Assembly: GCA_046340755.1 (NCBI GenBank)
Contig: JBKDSY010000065.1
Location: 3,633-67,632, forward strand
Length of the DNA stretch: 64,000 nucleotides
Source of the DNA: Cyanobacteriota bacterium
GTDB lineage: Bacteria > Cyanobacteriota > Cyanobacteriia > PCC-6307 > Cyanobiaceae
Direction of reading: 5' to 3'
The translations under genes were made by a program, and so were the position numbers. The first letter of the stretch is position 1; each line of letters starts with the position of its first letter. Of this stretch, positions 4,930 through 63,286 are shown in pieces. The notes below the pieces were generated by a model. That model saw nothing but the letters and a program-made list of their open reading frames with translations. It was not told where the DNA came from and did no database searches.

Positions 4930-4973
4930 GCGGGGCGAGGGAAAAGGGACCCGCCCCGGTGGTGGCCTTCGCC

Positions 4974-5486
4974 TCAGTGCAAGCCCAGGGATTGGCGCAT
5001 GCCGCCGACGACTTTTTTCATGTCTTCGTCACTGATGTGGCCCGCCTCCAGGAGCTGTTGGGCCAGGGCGAGCTTGGCGCGATTCAGCTGCATTTGCAGC
5101 AATCCGGAGCAGGTGTTCTTGAAGCCGGTGCCGCCAAGCGGCACCAACAGCGCCAAGCCGCCACCCATCCCGAGCGACTTGTTGAGTGTCTCCGGAAACG
5201 TGAGGGCCGTCCCGGCCGCCTCCTCCCCTTCCCGCCAGCGGCCATAGACCACCAGGGACGGGGGAGAACGGTCGGTCACGGAACAGGTGCTGCCATCATC
5301 CAGATCAACCTGCAGCCTCGGTTGGGGGGCGTAGGTTGAATCATTGTTGACGCTGATTCCCTCCGCGGCCCTCACGGGATGAGCCAGAAGCGCGAGCAGG
5401 ATTCCGTGGCCAACAGCGCGGACCCACTGGTTGCCCCTCCTCCTTGCCCTTCCTTGCGTTCGACAGGGGGGATGTAGAGAGCACAT
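4974..5486 (-). CDS. Hypothetical secreted protein, third gene of the pilin-like/chaperone-like cluster (start uncertain)
   Basis: Signal-like GILLALLAHPVRA, two Cys (GSTCS, KNTCS), GGLALLVPLGG, helical tail. Confidence 0.5.
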   Translation of the reverse strand: MCSLHPPCRTQGRARRRGNQWVRAVGHGILLALLAHPVRAAEGISVNNDSTYAPQPRLQVDLDDGSTCSVTDRSPPSLVVYGRWREGEEAAGTALTFPETLNKSLGMGGGLALLVPLGGTGFKNTCSGLLQMQLNRAKLALAQQLLEAGHISDEDMKKVVGGMRQSLGLH

Positions 5487-5803
5487 AGGAAGAAAGGAGT
5501 CTTTTGGGTGACATTTGCCGTGAGCGTCAGCATCAGCTTCTTCATCTTGTTGGGGGCAAGCTTGAAGCTGGATGGAGAGAGCACAACCCCTTCCGTCAAC
5601 ACCTCACCGGCCTTGGTGGGATCACTGCTAGGTCCTTTCACCCGCACCGTGAGATTGACCGGTTCTGATCGGGAGTGGGAGACTTGCAGCTTGATCCGGG
5701 CCGTTTGGTTGCGGAGAGGAAACTCTTTCTTGTCGAGATAAACAGTCTGGGCAGAAACCTGCCCAGACCACAGAACTGCTAGCAGCAGAAAACAACACTT
5801 CAC
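5372..5803 (-). CDS. Secreted Ig-like protein resembling the N-domain of a PapD/fimbrial chaperone
   Basis: Signal peptide MKCCFLLLAVLWSGQVSA; IKLQVSHSRSEPVNLTVRV and VVLSPSSFKLAPNKMKKLML resemble chaperone strands; starts 3 nt after the pilin-like stop. Confidence 0.5.
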   Translation of the reverse strand: MKCCFLLLAVLWSGQVSAQTVYLDKKEFPLRNQTARIKLQVSHSRSEPVNLTVRVKGPSSDPTKAGEVLTEGVVLSPSSFKLAPNKMKKLMLTLTANVTQKTPFFLCALYIPPVERKEGQGGGATSGSALLATESCSRFWLIP

Positions 5804-5806
5804 GGA

Positions 5807-6268
5807 TCAGAGGGCCGTGCAGGTGGCGGTGGCAGCAACGGAGTAGTCACCCGCCGAGAGCAAAGCATCCGCGTTGTTCTGAAGGATCTCGGTGGTGATA
5901 GCCCCGGTCAGTTTATTGATGCCCAGTTTGGGATCACCCGTCACAGCTGCCGTTGTGGAGGTGCTGGACACCAGGTTGGCCAGGCTCACCGAAGGGGTGT
6001 AGGCAGCCGCACCCTGAGGCGCGGTTGGTGAGAGGAGGCTGAGGGTGACAGTGGTGTCACCATTGGCCACAAACTGGTAGGTGCCGGTGCCACTGAGTTT
6101 GTCTTTCTCTGCAGAGATCGACATGGCAATCGGACCGCCCGTGTTGGAAATGTCGCAGAAGCTGGGGGTGGAACCTGAGGCATTGATGTCGGCGGAGTTT
6201 CCCGCAATGCCTGCGACTGGCGCACAGACCAGGGAGAGGACTGTGGCGAATGCAAGTCGTTTTTTCAT
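5807..6268 (-). CDS. Secreted fimbrial-subunit-like protein
   Basis: 153 aa, signal peptide, N-terminal ADINASGSTPSFCDIS, Thr/Ser/Ala-rich beta core, C-terminal LSAGDYSVAATATC typical of chaperone-usher-type subunits. Confidence 0.5.
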   Translation of the reverse strand: MKKRLAFATVLSLVCAPVAGIAGNSADINASGSTPSFCDISNTGGPIAMSISAEKDKLSGTGTYQFVANGDTTVTLSLLSPTAPQGAAAYTPSVSLANLVSSTSTTAAVTGDPKLGINKLTGAITTEILQNNADALLSAGDYSVAATATCTAL

Positions 6269-49331: not shown

Positions 49332-49428
49332 GGGTCGGGCAGCCGCCCCGTCTGACCACGGATCCGGCCGGTAGGATGCCGCCGCCAACCGGTTTCATCC
49401 GGCCCTTACCCGCACGCTTTCCCTATCC

Positions 49429-50028
49429 ATGGCGCACCAGCTGCCCGCCCTTCCTTACAGCCTCGATGCGCTCGAGCCCCACATCTCCCGCAACACGCTG
49501 GAGTTTCACCACGGCAAACACCACGCGGCCTACGTCACCAACCTGAACAATCTGGTGGCCGGCACGGATCTCGAGGGCACGTCCCTCGACGACACCATCC
49601 TGGCCGTGGCTGGCGACGCCAGCAAGGCCGGCGTGTTCAACAACGCCGCCCAGGTGTGGAATCACACGTTCTACTGGCAGGGGATGAAGCCTGGCGGCGG
49701 CGGTGCCCCCAGCGGCGAGCTGGCCGCCAAGATCGATGAGGCCTTCGGCAGCTTCGAGGCCTTCAAGGAGCAGTTCAAGGCCGCTGGTGCCACCCAGTTT
49801 GGCAGTGGCTGGGCCTGGCTGGTGCTCGACAACGGCGCCCTGAAGATCACCAAGACAGGCAACGCCGATCTGCCCTTGGCCCATGGCCAGAAGGCCCTGC
49901 TCACCATGGATGTGTGGGAGCACGCCTATTACCTCGACTACCAGAATCGCCGCCCCGACTACATCACCACCTTCCTCGACAAGCTGGTGAATTGGGACTT
50001 TGTTGCCGCCAACCTGGCCGCCGCCTGA
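49429..50028 (+). CDS. sodB: Iron superoxide dismutase
   Basis: HHGKHH, FNNAAQVWNH (Fe-type), DVWEHAYY. Confidence 0.96.
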   Translation: MAHQLPALPYSLDALEPHISRNTLEFHHGKHHAAYVTNLNNLVAGTDLEGTSLDDTILAVAGDASKAGVFNNAAQVWNHTFYWQGMKPGGGGAPSGELAAKIDEAFGSFEAFKEQFKAAGATQFGSGWAWLVLDNGALKITKTGNADLPLAHGQKALLTMDVWEHAYYLDYQNRRPDYITTFLDKLVNWDFVAANLAAA

Positions 50029-50093
50029 CCTCCGTGGCTTTCTGGAGGCTTCCAACTCCCTAGGGGTTCGGTACCGAGAAATTGAGGATCGAC

Positions 50094-50130
50094 AAGACGC
50101 TCCGCCCCCAGTGGCCGGAGCGTCTTTTTT
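50094..50130 (+). terminator. Rho-independent terminator after sodB
   Basis: Stem AAGACGCTCCG / CGGAGCGTCTT followed by a T run. Confidence 0.75.
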
Positions 50131-50169
50131 GTGGTTGGTTGGTCCACTCCCTGCCGCGGGTCGCTCCAG

Positions 50170-50913
50170 ATGTTTGTGCTCAGCAAGCTGCTCCCTCTCC
50201 TGGTGTTGCCGTTGGGGGTGGCCCTGCTGCTGCTGGCCTGGGGCATCGGTCGCCGGCGCTGGACGCCGGTGCGAGGGGCCTTCGCCCTGCTCTGGGTGCT
50301 GGGGACACCCCTGACAGCCCAGGGACTCTGGCGCTGGATGGAGCGCCCCTGGCAACCCCTGCGTCCCCAAACCATGCCCACGGCCGCCGCGATCGTGGTG
50401 CTGGGAGGCGGCCGCCACCCCGCCCCGGGCCCCTTGCGCCGCACGGAATGGGTGGATGCCGATCGCTTCTTCGGCGGCCTGGACCTCTATCGCGCCGGCA
50501 GGGCCCCCCTGCTGCTCTTCACCGGCGGTGCCATCGCCCTCCAGAGCGGGCTGCCCACCGAAGGTGACGTACATCGCGAACAGGCCGAGGCCCTCGGCCT
50601 GCCCCCCCAGGCCCTGGCCGTCACCCCCTACGTGCGCAACACGGCCGAGGAAGCGCGGGCCGTGGCGGCCCAACTGCCCAAGGGCAGCCGGGTGCTGCTG
50701 GTGACCTCCGCCTTCCACATGGCGCGAGCCCGGGCCCTGTTTGAACGCCAGGGCCTGGCGGTGGTGCCCTACCCGGTCGACTTTCAATCCCGCGGCGCCT
50801 GGGCGGGCCCCGTGTGGAGGGATTTTCGCTATTGGTTCCCCAGTGCCGATGGGCTGGACAGCAGCAGCCGCGCCCTGCGGGAGGCGCTGGGGCGACTGTT
50901 GTATCGAAGTTGA
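50170..50913 (+). CDS. YdcF/DUF218-family membrane-anchored protein
   Basis: IVVLGGG, LLFTGG, RNTAEEA, LVTSAFHMARA. Confidence 0.88.
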   Translation: MFVLSKLLPLLVLPLGVALLLLAWGIGRRRWTPVRGAFALLWVLGTPLTAQGLWRWMERPWQPLRPQTMPTAAAIVVLGGGRHPAPGPLRRTEWVDADRFFGGLDLYRAGRAPLLLFTGGAIALQSGLPTEGDVHREQAEALGLPPQALAVTPYVRNTAEEARAVAAQLPKGSRVLLVTSAFHMARARALFERQGLAVVPYPVDFQSRGAWAGPVWRDFRYWFPSADGLDSSSRALREALGRLLYRS

Positions 50914-50995
50914 GCCCCCGCCGGCTGGCGAAAGCGCCAGGGCAGGGTGCTCGCCGCAACAGTGAACTAGACTAAGACTAGGTTCAGACTGATTC

Positions 50996-51229
50996 GTGAT
51001 GGAAGTGGTGAACATCCATCAAGCCAAAACCCACCTCTCCCAGCTTCTGCAGGAGGTGGAACAAGGGCAGGAGGTGGTGATCGCGCGCTCAGGGGTGCCG
51101 ATTGCCCGGTTGGTGGCCTGGCAGGCTCCCGCCCAGCCCGTGGCCGCGCCCGGGGCCATGCGCGGCCAGATCCAGCTGACAGACGATTTCGATGCCCCGC
51201 TTGAGGAGCTGTTTGAGGTGCTGCGGTGA
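50996..51229 (+). CDS. Phd/YefM-family antitoxin
   Basis: VNIHQAKTHLSQLLQEVEQGQEVVIARSGVPIARL. Confidence 0.92.
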   Translation: MMEVVNIHQAKTHLSQLLQEVEQGQEVVIARSGVPIARLVAWQAPAQPVAAPGAMRGQIQLTDDFDAPLEELFEVLR

Positions 51230-51618
51230 CGCGGCTGCTGCTCGACACCCATGTGCTGCTGTGGTGGCTGAACGACGATCCACGTCTGCCGGAGACCGTG
51301 GTGCAGCGGGTGCGGGCGCCGGAGGCGGAGGTATTTGTGAGCCAGGCCTCGCTGTGGGAGATGGCGATCAAGGTGTCGATCGGCCGGCTGGTGGTGGATC
51401 TGCAGGACCTGGAGCGCCAAGTGCCGCGGCAGGGGTTCCGTTGGCTGCAAGTCAGCAACGCCCACCTGCTGGCCGTGGCGAACCTGGAAACCGCTGGCCT
51501 TCACCGGGATCCCTTTGATCGCCTGCTGGTGTGCCAGAGCCGGGTGGAGCCGATGCTGTTGCTGAGTGTGGATCGCCAACTGCGGAGCTACGGCAACACG
51601 GTGATTGTTGTGGCGTAA
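51226..51618 (+). CDS. vapC: PIN-domain (VapC) toxin
   Basis: LLLDTHVLLWW, SLWEMAIK, HRDPFDRLL; GTGA overlap with the antitoxin. Confidence 0.92.
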   Translation: MTRLLLDTHVLLWWLNDDPRLPETVVQRVRAPEAEVFVSQASLWEMAIKVSIGRLVVDLQDLERQVPRQGFRWLQVSNAHLLAVANLETAGLHRDPFDRLLVCQSRVEPMLLLSVDRQLRSYGNTVIVVA

Positions 51619-51899
51619 GGAGAAACCCAAGGACGTTGGTTGAACCGCAGGCTGAAACGCAATGAGACGTGCCTGGATTGGCAGACGGACCGGCGGCCGC
51701 GAGCGAATTTCCACGACCACTCCGTTGCCATTCGACAACCCGATCAACCGTTCCAGCAGGTGTGATGTCTTGCCAAGGCTCCAGGGAACCGGCCTGCCCA
51801 ACAATCCAACTGGCGACTGGGGCTGGGGCCATCTCCCTTAACGGATACCATCATCTCTTGCCCAGCTCCCGCGTCCACTCGTTCCGCCGCATCGGCTCA

Positions 51900-53198
51900 G
51901 TGACCATCCAGCCAACGTCAGCAGGGGAGACAGAGACCACCACGTTGCCCGGGGTACCGGGCCAGCCGCTTCACCCACCGCTGGCGCTGGAGGGGCCGCC
52001 GCCGCCGCCGCCACTCGGCGACACTCCCGCGGCGTTGCCCAAGGCCACTTCTGAGGCTCTTCCCGGAATCGTGGAGGAACTGCAGACCTGCCTGGCCACC
52101 CCCAGCCCCCTGTTCCTCGGCCAGGCGATCGAAGCAGAGTTGGTGCAGACTCTGGCCGCCCATGAGTTCGACACCCTGTTCCTGTTCAGCGAGCCGCGGG
52201 TGTTCGCCGTCCATGGCCAGCCTCTGCTAGATCGCCTGCGGCACGGCCAGCGCTGTGTGCTTCAACTGGTGGGAACGGGGGAGAGCTGCAAGCGCTTTGC
52301 CAGCCTGGAGGGGGTGCTGGAAGGATTGATCGCCGCGGGAGCCAGCAAGCGCTCGCTCCTGATCGCCTTTGGCGGTGGCGCGGTGGGCAATCTGGTGGGA
52401 CTGGCGGCGGCCCTGCTGTTTCGCGGCGTGCGCTACATCGAGATCCCCACCACCATGACGGGGCAGACCGACAGCGTGTTGAGCAACAAGCAGGCGATCA
52501 ACGGCCGATACGGCAAAAACCTGTTTGGTCTTTATCACGCGCCACTGTTCATCTGGGTCGACACCCACTACCTGCTGAGTGAACCGCTGGCCTCCTGCCG
52601 GAGCGGCATCGTGGAGGGCATAAAGAATGGCTTCATCGCCGATCCGCCCTTTCTTGCCTACCTGGAGAGCGTTCTGGAACCCGAGCATCGCTACAGCGCC
52701 AACCAGCGCCATGGGCTGGTGAGGCGCCTGATCCTCTCCAAGCTGCCGATTCTGCGCCGCGATCCATCCGAAAAGGGCTACGGCATCATCTTGGAATACG
52801 GCCACACCTTCGGCCATGGGCTGGAGTTTCTGCTGGGTGGCCGGATGCAGCATGGTGAAGCAGTGGCTTACGGCATGCGCATCGCCGCGCGGCTGGCCCA
52901 TCGCCTCGGGCTGATCAACGCTGCGCTGGTGGACCGGCACGATCAGCTCATTGTTCAGCGGCTGGGCTTCGCAGCACCATGGCCTGAGTCGGTGCGGGCC
53001 AACGATTTGCTCAACGCCATGGCGTCGGACAACAAGAAAACGGGGCGGGAGTTGCGCTATGTGTTGCTGGAAGGGCTCGGCCACTGCGCCAATCCGGAGG
53101 GCGATTGGATGATGAAGGTTGAGGATGGCTTGGTGCTGGAGGTGTTGGAAGCGTTCATTGCCGAGATTGGCGTCAGGGAGGCGACGACTCCATGCTGA
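51900..53198 (+). CDS. 2-deoxy-scyllo-inosose synthase-like sugar phosphate cyclase (BtrC-like); start uncertain
   Basis: EFDTLFLFSE, GGGAVGNLVG, DSVLSNKQAIN, GKNLFGLY, VEGIKN, EKGYGIILEYGHTFGH, HGEAV. These match BtrC-type motifs as I recall them, not AroB (GD, DSSVGGK, LNFGH). Confidence 0.8.
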   Translation: MTIQPTSAGETETTTLPGVPGQPLHPPLALEGPPPPPPLGDTPAALPKATSEALPGIVEELQTCLATPSPLFLGQAIEAELVQTLAAHEFDTLFLFSEPRVFAVHGQPLLDRLRHGQRCVLQLVGTGESCKRFASLEGVLEGLIAAGASKRSLLIAFGGGAVGNLVGLAAALLFRGVRYIEIPTTMTGQTDSVLSNKQAINGRYGKNLFGLYHAPLFIWVDTHYLLSEPLASCRSGIVEGIKNGFIADPPFLAYLESVLEPEHRYSANQRHGLVRRLILSKLPILRRDPSEKGYGIILEYGHTFGHGLEFLLGGRMQHGEAVAYGMRIAARLAHRLGLINAALVDRHDQLIVQRLGFAAPWPESVRANDLLNAMASDNKKTGRELRYVLLEGLGHCANPEGDWMMKVEDGLVLEVLEAFIAEIGVREATTPC

Positions 53199-54304
53199 GC
53201 GGCGCCCTGGGCCTGGTTCTGGCCGCCGCACCGCCCGCACTGCCGGTGCCGCCCAGAGTGCCCGCACCCGCGGCTTCGCTGCCGGAGACGATTCGCAGTT
53301 TCACGATCACCTGCCTGGCCAAGGCGCGTGCGGGGCTGAACGCCTTCGGGGGCATCGGCGGGGTGACCTACGAACGGAGCCATGATCGCTGGTGGATGGC
53401 CTCAGAAGGCCTGCCCTTGCTCTTTCCGGTGACCGTTGATCCGCGCTCCCCCGATCCTCGGCCGCGCATCGGCACACCACTCACCCTCCATGGCGATCCC
53501 CGCGGGGAAACGTTCAAAAAGGTGGAAGCCCTCGCCCTCTGCCACGATCGTTTCTTCATCGGCACGGAAGCCGTGATGGCCAGCGATCTCCCCAGTGGCA
53601 GGGAGCAGGATCTGAGGGTGGTCATCGCTGACCGGCTGGCGCGTGTCACGGGGGAGTTGGCTCTGCCCGCCCATGTGCAGCGGCTCCGCCCGGGGATTGG
53701 ATCCCATCTCTACCGCGGCATCCAGGGCCTCTCCTGCAGCCCCGATGGCCATCAGCTCCTGGTGAGCCTGCAGCGGCCCCTGCAACAAGATGGCGCCGTG
53801 TCTATGAGCCGCCAGCTGCTCTACCGCTTGCACCCAGACCGCCAGACCTTCGTGCTCGAGCGGGAGTTTCTGTTGCCCCTCACCCACCAGCTCGGTCTGA
53901 TGGACAGCGTGTTGCTGGGGAACGGCGACGGGTTGATGCTGCAGAACGAGGTCAAGCCGCGCCAGCGCAACACCCTCTCCCACTTTCGTCTTGACGGGGG
54001 CGAAGACAGCGGCGGCTGCGTCTCCCTGCTGGATTGCCCAGCCCGCCCAGCGGCCGCCACCGTGGTGCTGGATCACATCGAGCGCCAGGCCGGTGTGGAT
54101 CTGGCTGCCAACGAGGTGCAATACGACGCCGCCGCCCTGGGCCCCACCCTGGCGGATGGCCGCCGTGTCGTGCTCCTCGTCAATGACGACGACCATTGCG
54201 GCACCCTCACCAGCCCCAACGCCACCATCGCGCCCGGCTTCGCGGGCACCACCTTCACCCGTGTTCTTCTCCCCCCCGCGCCCCCCGAGGGAGGTGGGCC
54301 ATGA
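53192..54304 (+). CDS. Secreted phytase-like/esterase-like beta-propeller protein
   Basis: Signal peptide; FGGIGGVTY, VEALAL, IQGLS, ALGPTLADGRRVVLLVNDDD resemble the phytase-like family. Confidence 0.7.
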   Translation: MLSGALGLVLAAAPPALPVPPRVPAPAASLPETIRSFTITCLAKARAGLNAFGGIGGVTYERSHDRWWMASEGLPLLFPVTVDPRSPDPRPRIGTPLTLHGDPRGETFKKVEALALCHDRFFIGTEAVMASDLPSGREQDLRVVIADRLARVTGELALPAHVQRLRPGIGSHLYRGIQGLSCSPDGHQLLVSLQRPLQQDGAVSMSRQLLYRLHPDRQTFVLEREFLLPLTHQLGLMDSVLLGNGDGLMLQNEVKPRQRNTLSHFRLDGGEDSGGCVSLLDCPARPAAATVVLDHIERQAGVDLAANEVQYDAAALGPTLADGRRVVLLVNDDDHCGTLTSPNATIAPGFAGTTFTRVLLPPAPPEGGGP

Positions 54305-55104
54305 CCCAGCCGGTCCAGTCCCCAACACCCGATCCACCCTTCCCCCTTTATCAGGATTTGCGCGGGCGCGGGGTGGTGATCACCGGGGGCGCCGCGGGCA
54401 TCGGCGCGGCCCTCTGTGAGGCGTTTGTGGGTCAGGGCGCGCGGGTGATCAGCCTGGATCGGGACACGGAGGGCCATCGGCGCCTGATGGAGCGTTGCGC
54501 CGAGGGGCCCGGTGCGCTGGAGGGGCTGGAGGTGGATCTCTGTGATGGCACCGCCCTGGTGCGCACGTTGGCTCAGGTGCGCGAACGATTGCCGGAGCTG
54601 CGCGTGGTGATCGCCAATGCCGGCTACGACCCTCGCCACGACGGCCTGGCGATGGAGGAGCGCCAATGGAACGAACTCTTTCAGCTCAACGTCACCCACG
54701 CCTTTCTCACCTGCCGCGAACTCCTGCCCCAACTGGTCGCCAATGGCGGCGGCAGTGTGATCCTCACCACCAGCCACACCGCCTGGATCGCCAAGCCCGA
54801 ACTGATCGCCTACAACAGCACCAAGGCGGCGCTGGTGGGTCTCACCCGTGGCCTGGCGGAGGCCTATGGAGGCCAGGGCATTCGGGTGAATGCCGTCGCG
54901 CCGGGCTGGACGATGACCGAACGACAGTTGCGCCAATGGGTGACGCCGGAGGCTCTCGATGAGACCGTGCATCGCCTGCAGGCCATGCCCCTCACCCTCA
55001 CCCCCGAGCTGATCGCCCAACCGTTTCTGTTCCTCGCCAGCGATGCCTCCCTGGCCCTCACGCGCCAGGTGTTGATCGCCGACGCGGGTCAAACCAAGAT
55101 CTGA
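54301..55104 (+). CDS. SDR-family NAD(P)-dependent oxidoreductase (aldose-dehydrogenase-like)
   Basis: ITGGAAGIG, NAGYDPRH, YNSTK, GIRVNAVAPGWTMTERQLRQW; resembles Caulobacter XylB-type SDRs. Confidence 0.9.
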   Translation: MTQPVQSPTPDPPFPLYQDLRGRGVVITGGAAGIGAALCEAFVGQGARVISLDRDTEGHRRLMERCAEGPGALEGLEVDLCDGTALVRTLAQVRERLPELRVVIANAGYDPRHDGLAMEERQWNELFQLNVTHAFLTCRELLPQLVANGGGSVILTTSHTAWIAKPELIAYNSTKAALVGLTRGLAEAYGGQGIRVNAVAPGWTMTERQLRQWVTPEALDETVHRLQAMPLTLTPELIAQPFLFLASDASLALTRQVLIADAGQTKI

Positions 55105-55110
55105 GGCGCC

Positions 55111-55953
55111 ATGGCGGATGACATCGGCCTCTGCACCTGGATCTTCGGCCACCAACGCCACCCGGAGATCGCGGCGGTGGCGGCTGACCTGGGCTGCGCG
55201 GGGGTGGAGCTGCACGTGCCGCTGGACGTCTGGCCCGCCGCCGAGTGGCGACACCTCTACCGCTCCTTCGGATTGCGCATCCTCTCGCTGACGCCGGAGA
55301 ATGTCGATTTGGCCCATCCCCATCCGCGCGAACGGGAGCGGGCGGCGCACTACTACAGCCGTCTGATCGCTTTTGCCGCGGAGCTGGAGGCGCCAGCGAT
55401 CACGATCCACGAGTATGTGGGACGCGGCGCGGCGCCTGATGGCCAGCAGCCGGAATGGGAGCGGTTGCTGGTGGCTTGCCGGCGGCTGGTGCCCTTGGCG
55501 GAGGAGCGGCGGGTGGATCTGCTGTTGGAGCCCCTCCGGCCGCCCCTGGTGAGTCAGATCCAGCGGGCCGCCGATGCCGTGCGGCTCTCTGAGGCGGTGG
55601 GGTCGGAGCGGTTGCGCATCGTGCTCGACACCTTCCACATGGAAGCCGCCGAGGCGAATCCAGGCGGCGCGATTCGCCTCTGCGCGGACCGGCTGGGGGC
55701 GGTGCAACTGGCAGACCGCCAGCGGCGGGGGCTGGGGCTTGGCGGCATGGAGCTCCAGCCTTATTGGGACGCCTTTGCCGCCATCGGCTTTCGCGGCCCC
55801 TGGATCCTGGAATGCGCCGCGGGCCTGAGCGGCCCCTCCCTGCAACACCGTGACGTCGACCTGACCCTGTTGCGGGGGGAGCTGGAGAGCAGTCTGGTTG
55901 TGCTGCGCCGCCATCTGGTGTTGCCACCGCCGGTTTCGGATGGACCGGTCTGA
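55111..55953 (+). CDS. Sugar phosphate isomerase/epimerase (ketose 3-epimerase/IolI-like TIM barrel)
   Basis: LLLEPL, VLDTFHM, VQLAD..R, WILEC. Confidence 0.85.
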   Translation: MADDIGLCTWIFGHQRHPEIAAVAADLGCAGVELHVPLDVWPAAEWRHLYRSFGLRILSLTPENVDLAHPHPRERERAAHYYSRLIAFAAELEAPAITIHEYVGRGAAPDGQQPEWERLLVACRRLVPLAEERRVDLLLEPLRPPLVSQIQRAADAVRLSEAVGSERLRIVLDTFHMEAAEANPGGAIRLCADRLGAVQLADRQRRGLGLGGMELQPYWDAFAAIGFRGPWILECAAGLSGPSLQHRDVDLTLLRGELESSLVVLRRHLVLPPPVSDGPV

Positions 55954-55979
55954 GGGGCGAGACGGAGGAGGGGCTGGAA

Positions 55980-56816
55980 TCAACCAGGCCGCAGCTGACC
56001 CTGCCACCCCTGCCAGAGCAGGAGCGCCCCGCTGAGCAGCAGGGCGCCGCTGAACACCGCGTACACCCCCTCCTTGGAGGTGTTGCGCAAGAAGCGCTGT
56101 CCGAGCACGATCCCGATCGGCGTGAGCGGCAGGAACAGCAGGGAGAGTCGTAGTGCGGGCAGATCCAGCTGCCCCGTGGCCACGAAGGGCAGCACCTTGC
56201 TGGTGTTCAGGCAGGCAAACAACCAGGCCTGGGTGCCGGCCAGCAGTCGTGGCTCCAGCCGCTGCCCCATCAGGTGCACCATCACGGGCGGTCCGCCGGC
56301 GTGAACGAGCATGCTGGTGAAGCCCGCCAGCGCCCCCCACAGCCTGCCGATGCCATCTCCTGATCTCCGCGGCAGCGGCTGTGGCGAGGGGGGATTGGCG
56401 ACCATGGGCCGACGCAGCCAGCGCAGCAGCACGAACCCCAGGCAGATCACGCCAATCAGAATGCGCAGCCCGTCGTCCGAGAGCCAGCGGCCGACAAGGG
56501 CGGCCGCCACCATGCCCAGCAGGGCTGGGGGCAGCAGCAGTCGCAGCTGATGGCGATCGAAACAGCCGCGGAAGCTGACCAGGGCCAGCGCATCCAGCAC
56601 GAGCAGCAGCGGCAGCAGGATCGCCGCCGCCTGAAAGGGCGGCAGCACCAGGCTCATCAACGGCACGCAGATGGCGCTCAGCGGTGCCCCGGCGCCCCCC
56701 TTGGCAAAGCCATACACCAACACGGCGAGGCTGATGACAAGGATCTGGGCCGGGCTGAGCGCCGTTAGGGCAGAGGGGAGCAAACCAGCAGCGTGGTGGG
56801 CCTGCTGATCCTGCAT
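55980..56816 (-). CDS. TauE/SafE-family exporter
   Basis: YGFAKGGAG, AAAILLPLLLVLD, GFTSMLVHAGGPP; about 8 TM helices. Confidence 0.85.
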   Translation of the reverse strand: MQDQQAHHAAGLLPSALTALSPAQILVISLAVLVYGFAKGGAGAPLSAICVPLMSLVLPPFQAAAILLPLLLVLDALALVSFRGCFDRHQLRLLLPPALLGMVAAALVGRWLSDDGLRILIGVICLGFVLLRWLRRPMVANPPSPQPLPRRSGDGIGRLWGALAGFTSMLVHAGGPPVMVHLMGQRLEPRLLAGTQAWLFACLNTSKVLPFVATGQLDLPALRLSLLFLPLTPIGIVLGQRFLRNTSKEGVYAVFSGALLLSGALLLWQGWQGQLRPG

Positions 56817-56997: not shown

Positions 56998-57828
56998 TCA
57001 GGCTGAGCTTGGCTGCGGCAGGACGGACTGCAGGAGGCCCTGTTGGATCAGGCGTTCGAAATGATCCCAGACATCATCGGCATGGGCGGGGCTGCTGAGA
57101 TGGAGGCCCAGCTCGAAGTTGGAGAGCTGAGCGGCATCCGTCAGGTTGGCGCTGGTGACGAGCAACTCTTGATCGGCTACCACCGCCTTGACGTGACAAA
57201 CAGCTTTCTCCCGTTCAAGCGATAGGGAACGGGGGTCGAAGAACACCGCAGGAGCAGGCGGTTCAGGCCAAAGGCGTGACCAGGTTTGATGTTGAAACTT
57301 ACGGATCAAGGCCTCAGGGCTTGAGGTGTCGCCACGATCCCGGTGGATGTTGCAGACCATCCGCACGTGCAACGTCGGGTGCGCCACCATGCGCTCCCGG
57401 ATCAGCTGAAACAACTCTTGGATGAAGGGCCCGTTGTAGAAGGCGTAGGTGGTGAGCAGCAGGCGCTGCTCGGCCCGCTCCACCAACTGACGAATCAGCA
57501 CCGACTGATCGCGGGTGACCGACCCTGCTCCTGCATCCGGGCCTGACCACACCAGTTCGATCGACCGTGCTGCCATGTCACTGCGTCGCTGATCCAAGAG
57601 GGCCTGAAGGGACAGGAGCAGGGCCTCTCTGCTGCCGCCTGAGGCACGCCAGTGCACCAGCCAGGCATCCAGGGAACCGGGGCCGGTCGCCAGACCGATT
57701 CGGGCCAGGAAGGCTGGAGGATCAGCCAGGTCGGCCGCGAGAGAACCGGAATCGCCGCGGTGGGAATCCAGCGCCGCCAACAGGGTTTCCAGCTCAGCGG
57801 TGCTCAGATTGGGGAAGGCCGCAGCCAT
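56998..57828 (-). CDS. drmC: DISARM phospholipase D-family nuclease DrmC
   Basis: ELVWSGP, HVKAVVAD (HxKxxxxD), TSANLT, NFELG; directly after drmB. Confidence 0.88.
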   Translation of the reverse strand: MAAAFPNLSTAELETLLAALDSHRGDSGSLAADLADPPAFLARIGLATGPGSLDAWLVHWRASGGSREALLLSLQALLDQRRSDMAARSIELVWSGPDAGAGSVTRDQSVLIRQLVERAEQRLLLTTYAFYNGPFIQELFQLIRERMVAHPTLHVRMVCNIHRDRGDTSSPEALIRKFQHQTWSRLWPEPPAPAVFFDPRSLSLEREKAVCHVKAVVADQELLVTSANLTDAAQLSNFELGLHLSSPAHADDVWDHFERLIQQGLLQSVLPQPSSA

Positions 57829-59750
57829 CAGGGGGCGTCCGTGAAGAAGGCTGCGTCCTGCTGGATCAGGGTGGGAACGACAAGAGCGCGATCGAGAAAC
57901 TCATTGCGGCGTTCACAGCTGGTTTCAGCGATCAGCAGACAGCCATGGCAGGCGGCGCCGTGGGAGTAACGCTTCTCCAGTTCGCTGTTGGGGTCGTGGC
58001 TGGCGCAGAAGGGGTCGTTGGAGCAGAGGGAGGCTCGCTCCAGCGCCATCGCCAGCAGTTCATCAATGCGATCAGCCATGCCCACCAGGCCACCGAGCGA
58101 GCCCTCCGAACCGCTGCCTCCGGTATAGAGAAGGATACCGTAACCAATGTCATCGAAGGCGTAAATGCGCTCCTTGATCGCCGAGGCGCCATAGCCGCAA
58201 TCAAGTGCAGCCTCGGTGATCAGCAGGTGGGCGAGGCTATGGAGCATCAGGTAGGCGCCCCCAGGCCACTGAAACTTCTCCTCAGTGAGACCATGTTCCT
58301 TATTCCAGATCTTGAAAGCCTCACGGTGTTTGGAGAGGTGCTGAGCAGCTCCGTCACTCTTGAGCCAGCTGCGGATGGCCTCTGGATCGAAGCCAAGGAA
58401 GAGGCCTTCACCGAGATTTTCCACGGCCGGCAGCCAGGTTTCTTCTTTCACATCGATCTTCGCTCGCTTCACCCCAAGATCGAGGGGATCACCATCGATC
58501 TGGCTCACCACAGGCTCCAGGCGGGTGAAGCCCAGGAGGGCCATCACTTCCCGCAACTGGTGCACCTTTAACACTCGGTTGACGCGCTGCCGGAACCAGG
58601 CTGGTTTGGCTGCCAGATCAAGCTGTTCTGCTTCAAAGCGGCTGTTGCCTGTGCCGCGCGGCAGCCCATCGATGGGGCCGACCAAGGCGCGCAGTTCCTG
58701 TCGCTTGAGGGCCTCGGTCTTCTCCGGCGCAGCTTCACCCCCACGGATGGCTTCGAGAGCTGCGAAGATCTCAGCGGGGGCTGCACCAGCGAGAGGATCC
58801 TTGATGTGGTCGGGCGCGAAGTCCTCGAGCCAGACTTCGAGTTTGGCAGCACTGGTGATCTTCTCGAACGCCTTGAGGTGCTTGCTGATCACCTCCCGCA
58901 CCGCATCGATCGGTTGGGGAATGGAGATCGCCGAGATTAGCTCGGGGAAGTAGGCATTGCTGGCGGACCTCACCAGCAGGCGATTGGCGTAGCTGCCGCC
59001 CTTGCCCTTGCCGTTGTCGCAGGCCTCCTGGCCGAACGGACCCAGCCAGGGCCGATGCCCCTGGCAGAAACCCAGGGCTGGTCTTTCGTCTTCCTCGCCT
59101 CTGAGTTTCTGCTTGGCCTCAGAGAGCTGTCTGCGTCCCTTCTCTTCCATGCACTTTGGGTTGGAGCAGCGCACAAAGATCTCGGTGAAGTCGTTGCCAG
59201 CCCCGGCCTCATCCAGCCAGAGGGTGGCCCGGCAGGTGGTTTTGCCGCGGTGCACGAACTCCCGCCAGTCGATGTCGCTGAGATGGCCATTGGGGCAGGT
59301 CTGCACAAAGCGCACCGGCACGACGCGATGGGCCTTGCGATCGGCATCAACGAACTTGCGTTTGTCGAGGCGAGCGCCCTCCACCAGGGGGCGGCTGCGG
59401 TAGGTCTTGCCATCGAAGATCTCCGTTTTGTCCAGCTGGGCCACAAACCAGTTGGGGAACTCGGGGCTGCGGATGCCGCCGGGGCGGCTCAGGCCGCCCG
59501 GGCCAACATCGTGGATGGGCGGTTTGCGGAGGCGCAAGGAGCCCACATTGAGGCTCTGGCGAAGCTTGGCGATCAGCCGTGGTTCGTCGATCTCCTCGGG
59601 AGGCTGATCAGGGCCGTACATCCAGAGGTTGAGGCCCCCGATCACCACCGAGCAATCGGGCAGATCCACCATGGCGCCCGGGCCATGGGTGGTGATCAGC
59701 TGGCTATGGCGCACTTCCCCCTGGGGGCGCATGGACGGTTGAGGGGCCAT
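57828..59750 (-). CDS. drmB: DISARM DUF1998-domain protein DrmB
   Basis: VRHSQLITTHGPGAMVDL, MLHSLAHLL, CSNDPFC, AACHGC, ETSCE. Confidence 0.92.
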   Translation of the reverse strand: MAPQPSMRPQGEVRHSQLITTHGPGAMVDLPDCSVVIGGLNLWMYGPDQPPEEIDEPRLIAKLRQSLNVGSLRLRKPPIHDVGPGGLSRPGGIRSPEFPNWFVAQLDKTEIFDGKTYRSRPLVEGARLDKRKFVDADRKAHRVVPVRFVQTCPNGHLSDIDWREFVHRGKTTCRATLWLDEAGAGNDFTEIFVRCSNPKCMEEKGRRQLSEAKQKLRGEEDERPALGFCQGHRPWLGPFGQEACDNGKGKGGSYANRLLVRSASNAYFPELISAISIPQPIDAVREVISKHLKAFEKITSAAKLEVWLEDFAPDHIKDPLAGAAPAEIFAALEAIRGGEAAPEKTEALKRQELRALVGPIDGLPRGTGNSRFEAEQLDLAAKPAWFRQRVNRVLKVHQLREVMALLGFTRLEPVVSQIDGDPLDLGVKRAKIDVKEETWLPAVENLGEGLFLGFDPEAIRSWLKSDGAAQHLSKHREAFKIWNKEHGLTEEKFQWPGGAYLMLHSLAHLLITEAALDCGYGASAIKERIYAFDDIGYGILLYTGGSGSEGSLGGLVGMADRIDELLAMALERASLCSNDPFCASHDPNSELEKRYSHGAACHGCLLIAETSCERRNEFLDRALVVPTLIQQDAAFFTDAP

Positions 59751-62700
59751 CAGGTCATCTCCTCATCGCGATCAGGGCGTTGTCGGATCAGAGCAGCGCT
59801 GGGTTCCACATCGCGCAGGCTCCAGTTGGCCAGGAATTCCTGCTCCATCGCTTTGAGCTCCTTGAGATCGGGGTCAAGCGGGGTGTGGAGCAGGGGAGCC
59901 ACTTCACCTGCTTCACGGCCGTACTGGAGCAGGCCGTCCTTGTCACGGGCAATGCGGATCCACTTGTCGAGAAGGTTCATCACCCGCTGACGGACCTCAG
60001 CCTCGGTGTGTTCGCTGAGGGCCTTGCTCGGCGCGGAGCGGCGGGCCCGGTCCCCGATCCGCTGGGCCACCTCCGCCTGGCCGGCATTCTTGGCCCTGCT
60101 GAGCTCTGGGCTGAGGTGACGGGCGAGCGCCACGGTGATGGCTGGCAGCCCTCGCTGCAGGGCTCTGGACGACCAGGGTGTGACGCTGGTGGCTTCCACA
60201 TCGCGATAAAAGACCGAGTGCCAGAAGCTGAAGCGCTCGGAGTGGGAGCGGTCGCGCGGTCGGTTGGGGTTGAGCAACACCACCACCAGGCCAGGGCGCT
60301 GGTCGTCGCGGCCGACGCGGCTGCTGGCCTGGATGTATTCGGCCGTGGTCTTGGGTTGGCCCAGCATCACCATCAAACCGAGGCGGCTGATGTCGAGACC
60401 CACCGAGATCATGTTGGTGGCCAGCGCCGTATCGACGCGCTGCTTCTCATTGTCGAAACTGAGCTCGAGGCGGGCCTTGGTGGTGCTCACTTCCGAGGTG
60501 GGCACCCGTGAGGTGAGCTCCAGGGGTTCATTGGCGATCTTGCGGCGGGCGTAGCGCGCGCTGGTTTCGTTGAGGCGACGGCGCTGGTCGTAGGTGGTGA
60601 GCAGGGAGGTGACTTCTTCTTCCAGCAGGCGGCGGGTGATGCCGAGCTCCTTGATGGTGTTGAAGTAGCCCAGGAAGGTCATGTAGGGGTCAACGGGGTT
60701 GGGCCCCTTGGCTTCGCCTCGTTTCTCGCGGGCCTTGCGTTCCTTTTCGGCCTGGGTATAGAGCTTTTGGGCCGTGCTCATCAAGGCCAGGCCCACCCGC
60801 AGCAGCAAGGCCTTGATGTTGCGCCCAGGAGCAGAGATCCCGAGATAGATCCGTCCTTCTGCCTCGGTGACCGAGGCGGTGTAGGAGAAGAAGGAATCAC
60901 GGCGATCGGGGCCCGGGGCTGGGAAGACCGCCGGTGGGCTGCTGCGGCCGAACAGAGCCTGCATCTGCTGGCTGGCCCGGCGCACGGTGGCGGTGGAGGC
61001 CACGATCTTGGGCCTCACGATCTTGGCTCCATTGGCTGTCTCCACCTGGCGTGCACAGAGTTCATCGATCACCGCCTCATAGAGGCCGCCCATCGATCCC
61101 AGGGGGCCGGAGATGAGGTGGAGTTCGTCTTGAATGATCAGATCGGGGGGCTCCAGCCCCCGGGGCAGCAGCCCTCCAGCCTGATCACTGCCATCGCTGG
61201 GGCCAAAGAAGCCCTTGCCTGGCTGGGCATGGGTCACGCGGCCGAAGAGCTTCCCGGTCGCTCCCACCCAGGGCAGGGCAGCGAACTTGTCGACCGTGGC
61301 GATCACGAAGGCCGGCAGGCGTTGATAAAGCATCTCGTCGACGGCCACCAGCGGCAGGGTGTTGTCGCCCGAGAAGCGGCACTGGCGGTTGCGGCAGCAG
61401 ACCCTCAGCTCCTTCGGCTGATCGGCATTGGGGAGGAGGCGAAACACCCCGCGGGCCACCGCCGGACGCTCATCGCCCGGGGAAGCCTTGCCAAGCTCGG
61501 CGCCACACCATGGGCAGTTGTCGATCGGAATCGGCTTGTTGTCACCCCCGCTCCAGGCCAGCACGCGGGAGCGGGCACTGTTGTCGTCGTTATCGCCTTT
61601 GTGGCCCAGCTTGTTGGGGGTGCCGCTCTGCCCCACCCACAGGCCGATCTCGAAGGGCCACTGGCCGAGCCGCTTGGGATCCTTGCGGCGTTCCAGCTCC
61701 AGGGCGCAGATCAAGGTGGAGGCCCGGCCGAGCTGATCGAGGGTGAGCAGGCGGAGTGTGTAGCGCATCAGCACGCTCATGCCGGCCGACGCGATCGATC
61801 CCCCGTGGCGCAGCCGGCGCAGCACCAGGGTGTAGGCCGCCAGCCCCAGGTAAGCCTCGGTCTTGCCGCCGCCGGTGGGAAAGAACAGCAGGTCGATGGT
61901 GTCGCGATCGCCATCGGTGGGCTCCGCCATCCCAACGAGGTTCATCAGCACAAAGGCGAGCTGGAACGGCCGCCATTGGGGTTTCACGGCATCGGGGTTT
62001 TGGTTCCGCATCACCCCGAATCGCTGACGGGCAGCGGCGGCCATCACGCGGTTGGCGATCGCAAAGGCCAGCCGCACCTGTTCGTTCTCCAGGGCTTCGA
62101 TGCCACGCTCGATCCGCCGGGCCTGCTTGCTGGCCTCGTGCAGAAGCTCTGCGGCTGTGGCCTGTTGCTGCGTGCTCGCCGTATCTGTCGTTGTGCGCTG
62201 CTGCTCGATCCAGTCCGTGTAGGCCGTCACGAGAGGGCGTAAGGCCGTCTGCACAGGGTCGGCCCCTTCGCTCGCCAGGCGATCCAGCTCCGGCATCGAC
62301 AGCACCAGGCCGGCGGCTTCCAGTTCCCCCACCCTGGGCAGCACCCTCTCCACAGTGGCCTGGGGCAGCCAGGTGGTGCTGATCTGGAGGCAGCGGCCGT
62401 TGGCCTCGAGGCGGGGTGCCACGGAGATGTTGTGCCCCACGGCGAACTCGTGGTCGCCCCGGTAGTGGAGGTTGTTGACGCGGTGGTCCCAGTCGTTGGC
62501 GTTGATGGCCAGATCAGCGGCGCGGGGGTCGCGGCGCTCCAGGAAGCCGGCGCCGCAGATCACATCCAGCTGCACTTGGTAGGCACTGGCACGATCGCGG
62601 TCTTCCGCACTGCGGCCTTCAAAGCGGCGTTCGTTGGTGAGGAACAGGCTCACGGCCACGGCGCCGGGCGGGTAGCCCTGAGCCACAGGCGCGGGCCGCA

Positions 62701-63286
62701 GGTGCCATCGCAGCATCAGGCCCTCGCTGCCGGGCACCGGCTTGGCCTGGGCCGATCGGCCCCTGGGCGCCAGCCATTCGGCCGGGATGCTGATCTGCTC
62801 GGTGTGGGGTTCACGCAACCAGGCTTCGTCGGCCTTGCTGCCTTCTGGCGGGGCGGTGGGCTTGTAGCTGGCCCAGTGCACCGTGACCTCCAGCCCGGTG
62901 GCTGCCGGGATGAGCAGGCTCAAGCCAACGGAGCAGGTGAAGAACACTCGCCGCGCTGGCCCGGCTTCACTGGCGCCGGTGTCATCGCCTCGGGCGTTGC
63001 TCTTGCGTTTGGGGGAGAGGTTCTGGCCATCGAGGCCGGCGAATTCGTCGTCGGCCGCATCATCGGCGCGCTCGCCCAGGCTGGTTTCACTGGGGATCAG
63101 GAAACCGGTCTGGTACCAGCGGTTCGGGGGGCGATCGAGCACCTCTTCGCGCAGCTCGGTTGCCTCCTGGCTCTGGCCTTCGGCCTCCAGCTGCGCAAGA
63201 AGGCAAGGGGTGGGCCCCACGAGATCGAGCTCCAGGGCCTGGATCAGCTGTTCTCGCACCGCTGCGCTGGTGGAGTTGGACGTCAC
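59750..63286 (-). CDS. drmA: DISARM SF2 helicase DrmA
   Basis: ALELDLVGP, WRPFQLAF, FPTGGGKTEAY, QDELH, ATNMISVGLD, YIQASSRVGR. Confidence 0.92.
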   Translation of the reverse strand: MTSNSTSAAVREQLIQALELDLVGPTPCLLAQLEAEGQSQEATELREEVLDRPPNRWYQTGFLIPSETSLGERADDAADDEFAGLDGQNLSPKRKSNARGDDTGASEAGPARRVFFTCSVGLSLLIPAATGLEVTVHWASYKPTAPPEGSKADEAWLREPHTEQISIPAEWLAPRGRSAQAKPVPGSEGLMLRWHLRPAPVAQGYPPGAVAVSLFLTNERRFEGRSAEDRDRASAYQVQLDVICGAGFLERRDPRAADLAINANDWDHRVNNLHYRGDHEFAVGHNISVAPRLEANGRCLQISTTWLPQATVERVLPRVGELEAAGLVLSMPELDRLASEGADPVQTALRPLVTAYTDWIEQQRTTTDTASTQQQATAAELLHEASKQARRIERGIEALENEQVRLAFAIANRVMAAAARQRFGVMRNQNPDAVKPQWRPFQLAFVLMNLVGMAEPTDGDRDTIDLLFFPTGGGKTEAYLGLAAYTLVLRRLRHGGSIASAGMSVLMRYTLRLLTLDQLGRASTLICALELERRKDPKRLGQWPFEIGLWVGQSGTPNKLGHKGDNDDNSARSRVLAWSGGDNKPIPIDNCPWCGAELGKASPGDERPAVARGVFRLLPNADQPKELRVCCRNRQCRFSGDNTLPLVAVDEMLYQRLPAFVIATVDKFAALPWVGATGKLFGRVTHAQPGKGFFGPSDGSDQAGGLLPRGLEPPDLIIQDELHLISGPLGSMGGLYEAVIDELCARQVETANGAKIVRPKIVASTATVRRASQQMQALFGRSSPPAVFPAPGPDRRDSFFSYTASVTEAEGRIYLGISAPGRNIKALLLRVGLALMSTAQKLYTQAEKERKAREKRGEAKGPNPVDPYMTFLGYFNTIKELGITRRLLEEEVTSLLTTYDQRRRLNETSARYARRKIANEPLELTSRVPTSEVSTTKARLELSFDNEKQRVDTALATNMISVGLDISRLGLMVMLGQPKTTAEYIQASSRVGRDDQRPGLVVVLLNPNRPRDRSHSERFSFWHSVFYRDVEATSVTPWSSRALQRGLPAITVALARHLSPELSRAKNAGQAEVAQRIGDRARRSAPSKALSEHTEAEVRQRVMNLLDKWIRIARDKDGLLQYGREAGEVAPLLHTPLDPDLKELKAMEQEFLANWSLRDVEPSAALIRQRPDRDEEMT

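Follow-up and report, generated by a model that had tools for sequence, protein, structure and literature searches.

A cassette of five genes, found at positions 51900-56816 of a 64,000-nt stretch of DNA from a freshwater picocyanobacterium (hereafter the window; contig JBKDSY010000065.1, positions 3,633 to 67,632 of the forward strand, GenBank assembly GCA_046340755.1, family Cyanobiaceae), is headed by a gene whose product is best read as a synthase of 2-deoxy-scyllo-inosose (DOIS), a type of enzyme that has so far been treated as the entry point to the aminoglycoside antibiotics. It is probable, if by no means assured, that this mobile cassette serves to make a C6 carbocycle with 2-deoxy-scyllo-inosose (DOI) as its precursor, to tailor it, and to export it. 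The other four genes encode a Phytase-like beta-propeller, a classical short-chain dehydrogenase/reductase (SDR), a xylose-isomerase-like TIM barrel, and a permease of the TauE/SafE (TSUP) family. Inspection of the open reading frames (ORFs) indicates that all five are intact, and the Pfam matches of all five proteins exceed their cut-offs. A first-pass annotation of this DNA had proposed a new cyclitol pathway for this set of genes.

The cyclase and its four partners

The cyclase (51900..53198, plus strand) has the two-domain fold of a dehydroquinate synthase (DHQS), with matches to both PF01761 (DHQ_synthase) and PF24621 (DHQS_C) that pass the cut-off. Its best match in the PDB is BtrC (E = 2e-49), ahead of every DHQS; BtrC is the DOIS of butirosin biosynthesis (PDB 2D2X). 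When the protein was aligned with BtrC, a DHQS, the AroB of the same genome, and an EboD, all 13 of the active-site positions compared were found to be identical to those of BtrC. They include the shared Lys/Asn/Glu/His set and the DOIS-specific residues Glu243 and Gly239, in place of which DHQS has Asn and Arg, respectively. Glu243 is kept in 78 of 78 relatives, as are 11 further shared positions, and Gly or Ala at position 239 in 77 of them. Furthermore, in a maximum-likelihood tree in which BtrC was the sole characterised DOIS, BtrC joins the family of the window cyclase, apart from DHQS, AroB, and EboD (SH-aLRT 98), and some members of this family have already been named "2-deoxy-scyllo-inosose synthase" by NCBI. 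From the fingerprint and the phylogeny, DOIS activity is the best-supported reading of the cyclase, and the first-pass identification of the protein stands in the sense that it is of the DOIS type.

Two other assignments were rejected. The protein does not appear to be a second AroB, given its score against the aroB model (241 bits versus a cut-off of 305), the presence of a canonical aroB (360 bits) on another contig of the same genome (C232), and the DOIS fingerprint. Similarly, its match to TIGR04425, the AroB-related phospholyase family, reaches 158 bits against a cut-off of 400. The start of the protein is uncertain, since it is 432 aa long when read from the GTG at 51900, while one gene caller begins at a TTG at 51858, yielding 446 aa, and both are possible. 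Over the N-terminal ~55 residues Pro is abundant and conservation poor, and the conserved domain begins at about residue 55. Among the members of the family, such a Pro-rich extension (~55 aa or more, variable; 51900-52060 in the window) is confined to the picocyanobacterial cyclases.

The TIM barrel (55111..55953, plus strand; Pfam AP_endonuc_2, 123 bits) has nine invariant residues, E33, E140, D173, H176, E181, Q199, D202, R205, and E234. Its PDB matches by sequence are ketose 3-epimerases (1e-12), and among the NCBIfam models those for IolO and psicose 3-epimerase each give ~56 bits against a cut-off of 300. A Foldseek search with an AlphaFold2 model (pLDDT 91) returned D-tagatose and D-psicose 3-epimerases at TM 0.88, and also YcjR, which is a 3-keto-glucoside 4-epimerase. 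Proteins of this type (hereafter TIM1) invariably have E140, D173, and E234, the counterparts of the residues with which the epimerases bind metal and catalyse, as well as R205, and the His metal ligand of the epimerases is replaced by an invariant Gln in 34 of 34 TIM1 proteins. A Glu-Asp-Gln-Glu site of this kind is also a feature of Bacillus IolI. Both the sequence and the model suggest that the protein is of the ketose-3-epimerase/IolO type, and the fold match lends support to its earlier description as an epimerase-like enzyme.

The SDR (54301..55104, plus strand; Pfam adh_short, 146 bits) carries TGGAAGIG, which fits the TGxxxGxG cofactor motif, together with YNSTK, which fits the Tyr-x3-Lys part of the Ser/Tyr-x3-Lys catalytic set. 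Its nearest relatives are sugar 1-dehydrogenases acting on xylose or sulfoquinovose: the best NCBIfam match is D-xylose 1-dehydrogenase (179 bits versus a cut-off of 400), and the PDB matches are 7wwx, 4lvu, and the sulfoquinovose 1-dehydrogenase 9gwu. In SDRs, an Asp at the end of beta2 marks the use of NAD rather than NADP. This Asp is present in 36 of 42 orthologues, and the window SDR is predicted to be of the NAD type.

The propeller (53192..54304, plus strand) matches PF13449 with 76 bits. At its N-terminus lies a hydrophobic, signal-like segment, which is conserved and which contains a Lys in the marine homologue; on the basis of these export-signal features the protein is probably exported, that is, periplasmic or secreted, and the first-pass claim of a secreted propeller is retained in this weaker form. 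Alignments reveal six invariant Cys residues and the invariant motifs NDDDHCGT and PGFAGTTFTR. A sequence search of the PDB with the propeller gave no match, and a fold search with an AlphaFold2 model (pLDDT 72) gave only generic WD40/propeller matches (TM 0.3-0.47). The family is very small, with 35 sequence clusters in a collection of 5.8 billion proteins (a search limited by word matching), and every context of it that was examined contained the full cassette.

The last gene, for the TauE permease (55980..56816), lies on the minus strand. The match to PF01925 (98.9 bits) spans residues 30-265 of the 278-residue protein. Its convergent, 3'-to-3' position is kept in loci L018 to L022 and L099 to L101 and in a further contig from JGI, and it takes the slot that is held in other cyanobacteria by a transporter of the major facilitator superfamily (MFS).

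Arrangement, mobility, and wider distribution

The four plus-strand genes are closely packed. The cyclase and propeller genes overlap by 7 nt (ATGCTGA; propeller start at 53192) and the propeller and SDR genes by 4 nt (ATGA; SDR start at 54301). A gap of 6 nt precedes the start of the TIM-barrel gene at 55111, and 26 nt separate its stop from that of the convergent TauE gene. Shine-Dalgarno-like sequences, GGGAGG and GGAGGTGGG, lie upstream of both overlapping starts, i.e., those of the propeller and the SDR. As judged from this layout, the four genes are translationally coupled and operon-like. The extent of the region, the overlaps, and the gaps given in the first-pass annotation were all confirmed on the sequence. 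A search of the operon and the region before it with Rfam yielded no riboswitch or other RNA at E <= 0.1.

All five genes occur together on at least eight other contigs, with 45-90% identity, and so the co-conservation that had been anticipated for the set is borne out. The full set is present in four picocyanobacterial metagenome-assembled genomes (MAGs; L019-L022), with 57-90% identity per protein, in L101 (56% GC), and in the JGI contig. It is also present in two marine contigs, L099 (from the ENA marine-metagenome project PRJEB4352) and L100, which have 36% GC and encode proteins with 45-59% identity. In these two the order is rearranged, such that propeller-SDR-TIM faces TauE-DoxX-cyclase. 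Carriers of the cassette span 36-68% GC. Its distribution is sparse: the cyclase gene was found in 0 of 24 other genomes of the same genus in a first sample, and in a sample of the whole class it was found in 2 of 401 genomes, namely, the genome of the window and one congener. The congener shares a contig with L021, which is a MAG of a lake Cyanobium. The genes flanking the cassette in the window are present at none of the other cassette loci, save for a short DrmB-like fragment in L020, and in L018 the cassette is flanked by two VOC/glyoxalase genes. Because the five genes recur together while the flanks differ, the comparison of these sequences argues that the cassette is conserved as a functional unit, is horizontally mobile, and shifts from one variable region to another.

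The cyclase itself ranges far more widely, through cyanobacteria, Proteobacteria, Acidobacteria, Firmicutes, Planctomycetes, and others. When species-representative genomes were scanned, 79 loci were obtained; the ORFs around the cyclase were clustered, and partners were counted in 78 of them. An AP_endonuc_2 TIM barrel of some kind stands beside the cyclase in 65 of the 78 loci, whether TIM1, the type in the window (34 loci), or one of two other types designated c5 (19) and c7 (12). About 50 of the 78 loci also contain a dehydrogenase. This may be an orthologue of the SDR (~35 loci, with 51-90% identity overall and 51-59% outside the picocyanobacteria) or a Zn-dependent medium-chain dehydrogenase/reductase (MDR) designated c9 (10 loci). 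An MFS transporter is found in 35 loci. Most cyanobacteria (Okeania, Crocosphaera, Pleurocapsa, Xenococcaceae, Nostoc, Scytonema, Aphanothece) have the combination cyclase-MFS-TIM1-SDR; other cyanobacteria and some Proteobacteria and Oligoflexia have cyclase-c5-MFS only; and cyclase-c7-c9 is seen in Acidobacteria, Firmicutes, and Thermodesulfobacteriota. Only the picocyanobacterial/marine variant has the propeller and TauE. The culturable organisms with the core module include Aphanothece sacrum, Okeania hirsuta, Noviherbaspirillum suwonense DSM 26001, Desulfosporosinus fructosivorans 63.6F, and Holophaga foetida DSM 6591.

With NCBIfam, both TIM1 and c7 match IolO (5-keto-L-gluconate epimerase; 56-125 bits, far under the equivalog cut-off) and c9 matches IolM (scyllo-inosose 3-dehydrogenase; 158 bits, also under its equivalog cut-off), while in the PDB c5 matches IolI (2e-6) and the best match of c7 is TM0416. 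Thus, with the SDR as the exception among four partner types, the nearest characterised relative of each of the other three (TIM1/c7, c9, and c5) appears to handle an inosose or its immediate product. Since these relatives act on inososes, the partner set fits a pathway for tailoring DOI. Accessory genes are also found in some loci: cytochrome b561 in 10 cyanobacterial loci, a PIG3-type quinone reductase in 5, UbiD in 3 (L075, L079, and L083, of which the last two are acidobacterial), and UbiX in 2.

Several individual loci deserve mention. In Desulfosporosinus fructosivorans (L075:4113-15194), the cyclase-TIM-MDR trio is flanked by a molybdopterin enzyme resembling pyrogallol hydroxytransferase, with its Fe-S subunit, and on the opposite side by UbiX, UbiD, and a sugar-type MFS transporter. 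The contexts of L075, L079, and L083 suggest a link to trihydroxybenzene metabolism. In Paenibacillus thailandensis (L082:7962-16046), the cyclase and a TIM barrel head a larger biosynthetic cluster that includes a UbiE-like methyltransferase, an SDR, a BtrH_N/DUF4872 protein, a pyridoxal-phosphate-dependent decarboxylase, an AMP-dependent ligase, and a CN hydrolase, and that looks like an uncharacterised natural-product pathway. A MAG of Geopsychrobacteraceae (L089:8010-9926) and one of Holophagaceae (L091, ~4197-6119) encode the cyclase fused to a complete IclR regulator, in a single frame of 639 aa with HTH_IclR and IclR_C domains, whereas in L093 and in acidobacterial loci the cyclase is immediately preceded by an IclR gene of its own frame. 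Finally, in Okeania (L028:980-3951 and L031:7983-10929) two tandem DOIS-like copies, which belong to different sub-clades of the tree, head the cluster. Because relatives place the module in differing secondary-metabolite contexts, it may supply a building block whose fate depends on the lineage.

As for the surroundings of the cassette in the window, the upstream flank contains Lnt, an FKBP isomerase, and then ~2.5 kb without a family match (49423-51899), an uncommonly long stretch to lack any assignment. A minus-strand ORF of 530 aa within this region (49423-51015) is of low complexity and may be spurious in DNA of 66% GC; when compared with a 536-aa ORF upstream of the L101 cassette, it showed no similarity. 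Downstream, genes of the DISARM system follow directly after the cassette (56998-63286, minus strand), encoding DrmC (NF038319, 141 bits), an MrfA Zn-binding-domain protein (DrmB-like), and a large helicase. The DrmB-like fragment of L020 (3600-3839) consists of 102 aa with 52% identity and lies just upstream of the cassette there. A DoxX membrane protein, absent from the window, adjoins TauE in three of the other carriers, namely, those of the marine variant (L099:4324-4806 and L100:3992-4474) and a freshwater one (L101:7892-8395).

A proposed pathway and its alternatives

Taken together, these results have led to the following model. The cyclase would turn glucose-6-phosphate into DOI, as BtrC does. 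The metal-dependent TIM barrel would then enolise the ketone in the manner of the ketose 3-epimerases, IolO, and YcjR, and as a consequence the ring would be epimerised, isomerised, or dehydrated beside the carbonyl. The NAD-type SDR would act on a ring carbon, most likely by oxidising a hydroxyl to give a diketone, comparable to the action of IolM on scyllo-inosose; such a diketone would readily dehydrate to a tri- or tetrahydroxybenzene or a hydroxyquinone. TauE would carry the product over the inner membrane, and the putatively secreted, disulfide-rich propeller would act on it or bind it in the periplasm. DOI is two dehydrations short of 1,2,4-trihydroxybenzene, and the 1,3-diketone that an IolM-like oxidation of DOI would give is one dehydration short of a tetrahydroxybenzene.

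With regard to the product, an oxidised or aromatic compound is favoured, but only tentatively and at less than even odds; a saturated deoxy-inositol is possible but somewhat unlikely, and a similarly low weight is given to a product of some other kind. The oxidised or aromatised product is preferred, on indirect evidence, because the SDR carries the NAD-type signature, because the dehydrogenase found with the cyclase in other phyla is IolM-like, because accessory genes in the relatives are quinone- or phenol-related, and because, by analogy, the ring of thallusin in the ebo pathway also derives from a deoxy-inosose. In that case, a 2026 preprint reports that the aromatic ring stems from DEI, the deoxy-inosose made by EboD (bioRxiv 10.64898/2026.05.21.724671). 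The accessory genes counted here are those for cytochrome b561, the PIG3-type quinone reductase, DoxX, VOC/glyoxalase, UbiD, UbiX, the pyrogallol-transhydroxylase-like enzyme, and the UbiE-like methyltransferase. Polyhydroxybenzenes had been listed at first only as an alternative to a quercitol; in view of the type of SDR, the IolM-like partner, and the accessory genes, they are at least as likely.

However, several observations weigh against this model. BtrC is at most 39% identical to the cyclase and sits on a long branch, and the substrate or the stereochemistry could differ. The NCBIfam scores of the SDR, TIM-barrel, and MDR proteins are far below the equivalog cut-offs, and the closest relatives of the TIM barrel are epimerases rather than dehydratases, which suits a quercitol equally well. 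The NAD-type signature leaves the direction of the reaction in vivo unfixed. The quinone-type accessory genes sit in the relatives, not in the window, and each is present in a minority of loci. The substrates so far known for the TauE family are anions, and this fits a neutral cyclitol or phenol poorly. Lastly, a scan of the operon for promoters and terminators gave no signal beyond the shuffled background.

The first-pass scheme, in which DOI is epimerised by the TIM barrel and then reduced by the SDR to a quercitol-type deoxy-inositol that the cell either keeps as a solute or exports to act as an allelochemical or to inhibit glycosidases, must be weighed against the oxidative one. In its favour, ketose 3-epimerases and YcjR are the closest to the TIM barrel by sequence as well as by fold, and both catalytic Glu residues are invariant; sugar 1-dehydrogenase-type SDRs are reversible oxidoreductases of ring carbonyls, and a transporter is usually present. 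A quercitol is thus a possible product, but the specific order of epimerisation followed by reduction lacks support, given the Asp in 36 of the 42 SDRs, the oxidative, IolM-like nature of the analogous dehydrogenase in other phyla, and the quinone- and phenol-related accessory genes. Furthermore, the annotated neighbourhoods contain no glycosyltransferase, kinase, or phosphatase typical of cyclitol solutes, and the presence of an exporter of its own speaks against the suggested role as a compatible solute, which the cell would retain. Overall, the reductive scheme is judged unlikely. Less likely again, and indeed quite improbable, is that a cyclase with the DOIS fold uses another substrate, such as mannose-, galactose-, or glucosamine-6-phosphate, or sulfoquinovose with elimination of a sulfite that TauE would export. 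The identity to BtrC is only ~39%, and EboD demonstrates that members of the superfamily can switch hexose phosphates (PMC12904256), but EboD differs from BtrC at four of the active-site positions, whereas the window cyclase is identical at 13 of 13. For sulfoquinovose in particular, the resemblance of the SDR to 9gwu and the naming of the TauE family for sulfite/sulfoacetate export are suggestive; nevertheless, the SDR scores higher for xylose 1-dehydrogenase, and TauE is confined to the picocyanobacterial/marine variant, most relatives using an MFS transporter instead.

A catabolic route has also been considered, in which DOI would be oxidised to a 1,3-diketone and opened by hydrolysis to a deoxy-keto-hexonate, on the model of the Thermotoga inositol pathway, with the IolO-like TIM barrel epimerising the latter on its way to central metabolism. 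IolO is the best family match of TIM1 and c7, as IolM is of the MDR and TM0416 is of c7 in the PDB, and in several anaerobes the cyclase has an IclR regulator, of a kind common in catabolic operons, as a neighbour or fusion partner. This route is nonetheless very improbable: the cassette has no IolN-type hydrolase, with weak IolN-like matches elsewhere in the genome; there is no kinase or aldolase nearby; exporters are conserved; and there would be no evident benefit in closing glucose-6-phosphate into a carbocycle if the ring were then opened again. That the five genes are chance neighbours or decaying remnants with no joint function is hardly credible. They do lie in a variable island beside DISARM genes, and they are rare (2 of 401 genomes of the class), but the five intact frames, the translational coupling, and the co-conservation at 45-90% identity across 36-68% GC are difficult to reconcile with such an origin.

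A broader hypothesis can be drawn from the oxidative model, but it is speculative and its correctness is doubtful. In this hypothesis, the combination of DOIS, TIM barrel, and dehydrogenase constitutes a widespread route from hexose phosphates to tri- and tetrahydroxybenzenes and hydroxyquinones that is independent of shikimate and polyketide chemistry, and the periplasm of picocyanobacteria would receive from it a hydroxyquinone with redox activity. The propeller would then process or bind the hydroxyquinone, for example, in metal reduction or chelation, allelopathy, or signalling, and in anaerobes the module would feed trihydroxybenzene enzymes (transhydroxylase-like, UbiD/UbiX).

Relation to known cyclitol systems

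No description of this gene set was found in the full-text literature searched, in agreement with the first-pass statement that no described cluster of this composition was known. A 2026 review of cyclitol pathways treats DOIS in connection with aminoglycosides only and lists EboD as the newest class of cyclase. The closest characterised enzymes are the BtrC-type DOIS of the butirosin, neomycin, and kanamycin clusters, of which BtrC shares with the window cyclase the superfamily, the fold, the 13 of 13 active-site residues, and a joint clade apart from DHQS and EboD. However, at ~39% identity the window cyclase falls into a separate clade, and its family, unlike the BtrC-type enzymes, has a TIM barrel as partner in 65 of 78 loci and extends to cyanobacteria and to many phyla other than the actinomycetes. 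No aminotransferase or glycosyltransferase was found within ~8 kb on either side of the cassette, or in the orthologous cassettes, and the earlier conclusion that this is not a 2-deoxystreptamine cluster is upheld. Within the same distance, and in the orthologous cassettes too, the DOI aminotransferase, the glycosyltransferases, the resistance gene, and the second dehydrogenase of the aminoglycoside clusters are all lacking.

The ebo cluster offers a parallel in organisation. There, too, a deoxy-inosose cyclase adjoins a TIM barrel that is xylose-isomerase-like, and further tailoring of the ring follows, to an aromatic one in the case of ebo (PMC12904256; bioRxiv 10.64898/2026.05.21.724671). 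In contrast, an EboD from another cyanobacterium, encoded next to EboE (L098), is ~33% identical to the window cyclase and differs from BtrC at 4 of the 13 active-site positions (His, Ser, Asp, and Glu), and the cassette has no EboA, EboB, EboC (a UbiA-type prenyltransferase), or EboF. The EboE model NF035939 is matched neither by the TIM barrel of the cassette nor by anything else in the whole genome. An identity of the pair with EboD and EboE was ruled out on the basis of the cyclase fingerprint, the ~33% identity, and the missing NF035939 match.

IolM, IolN, and IolO of Thermotoga maritima, together with IolI of Bacillus, are the best-scoring characterised families for the partners of the cyclase, and they act on inososes or their direct products. 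However, the scores are far below the equivalog level (for IolO, 56 versus 300 bits), the IolN hydrolase is absent from the cassette, the cyanobacterial dehydrogenase is an SDR rather than an MDR, and the starting point is a biosynthetic cyclase rather than imported inositol. Likewise, the D-tagatose and D-psicose 3-epimerases and YcjR have the fold of the cassette TIM barrel (TM 0.82-0.88), in which the Glu/Asp/Glu metal ligands, both catalytic Glu residues, and the substrate-binding Arg are conserved, but the identity is ~21%, the His ligand is a Gln, and the expected substrate is a carbocyclic ketone and not a ketose.

A large sister family of DOIS-type cyclases thus sits apart from aminoglycoside genes, paired with a TIM barrel and usually accompanied by a dehydrogenase and a transporter. 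To this module the picocyanobacterial version, which appears to move between genomes, adds TauE and a private family of probably secreted propellers. Should an exported cyclitol or hydroxyquinone prove to be what it makes, picocyanobacteria in lakes and the ocean would have an exometabolite of a new kind, and a short enzymatic route would be at hand from glucose to deoxy-cyclitols or polyhydroxybenzenes. The cassette belongs with the cyclitol clusters that are based on sugar-phosphate cyclases, as a new gene set that includes a propeller family seen, in the contexts checked, only inside the cassette, and as an orphan pathway it is comparable to the ebo cluster before the discovery of its product.

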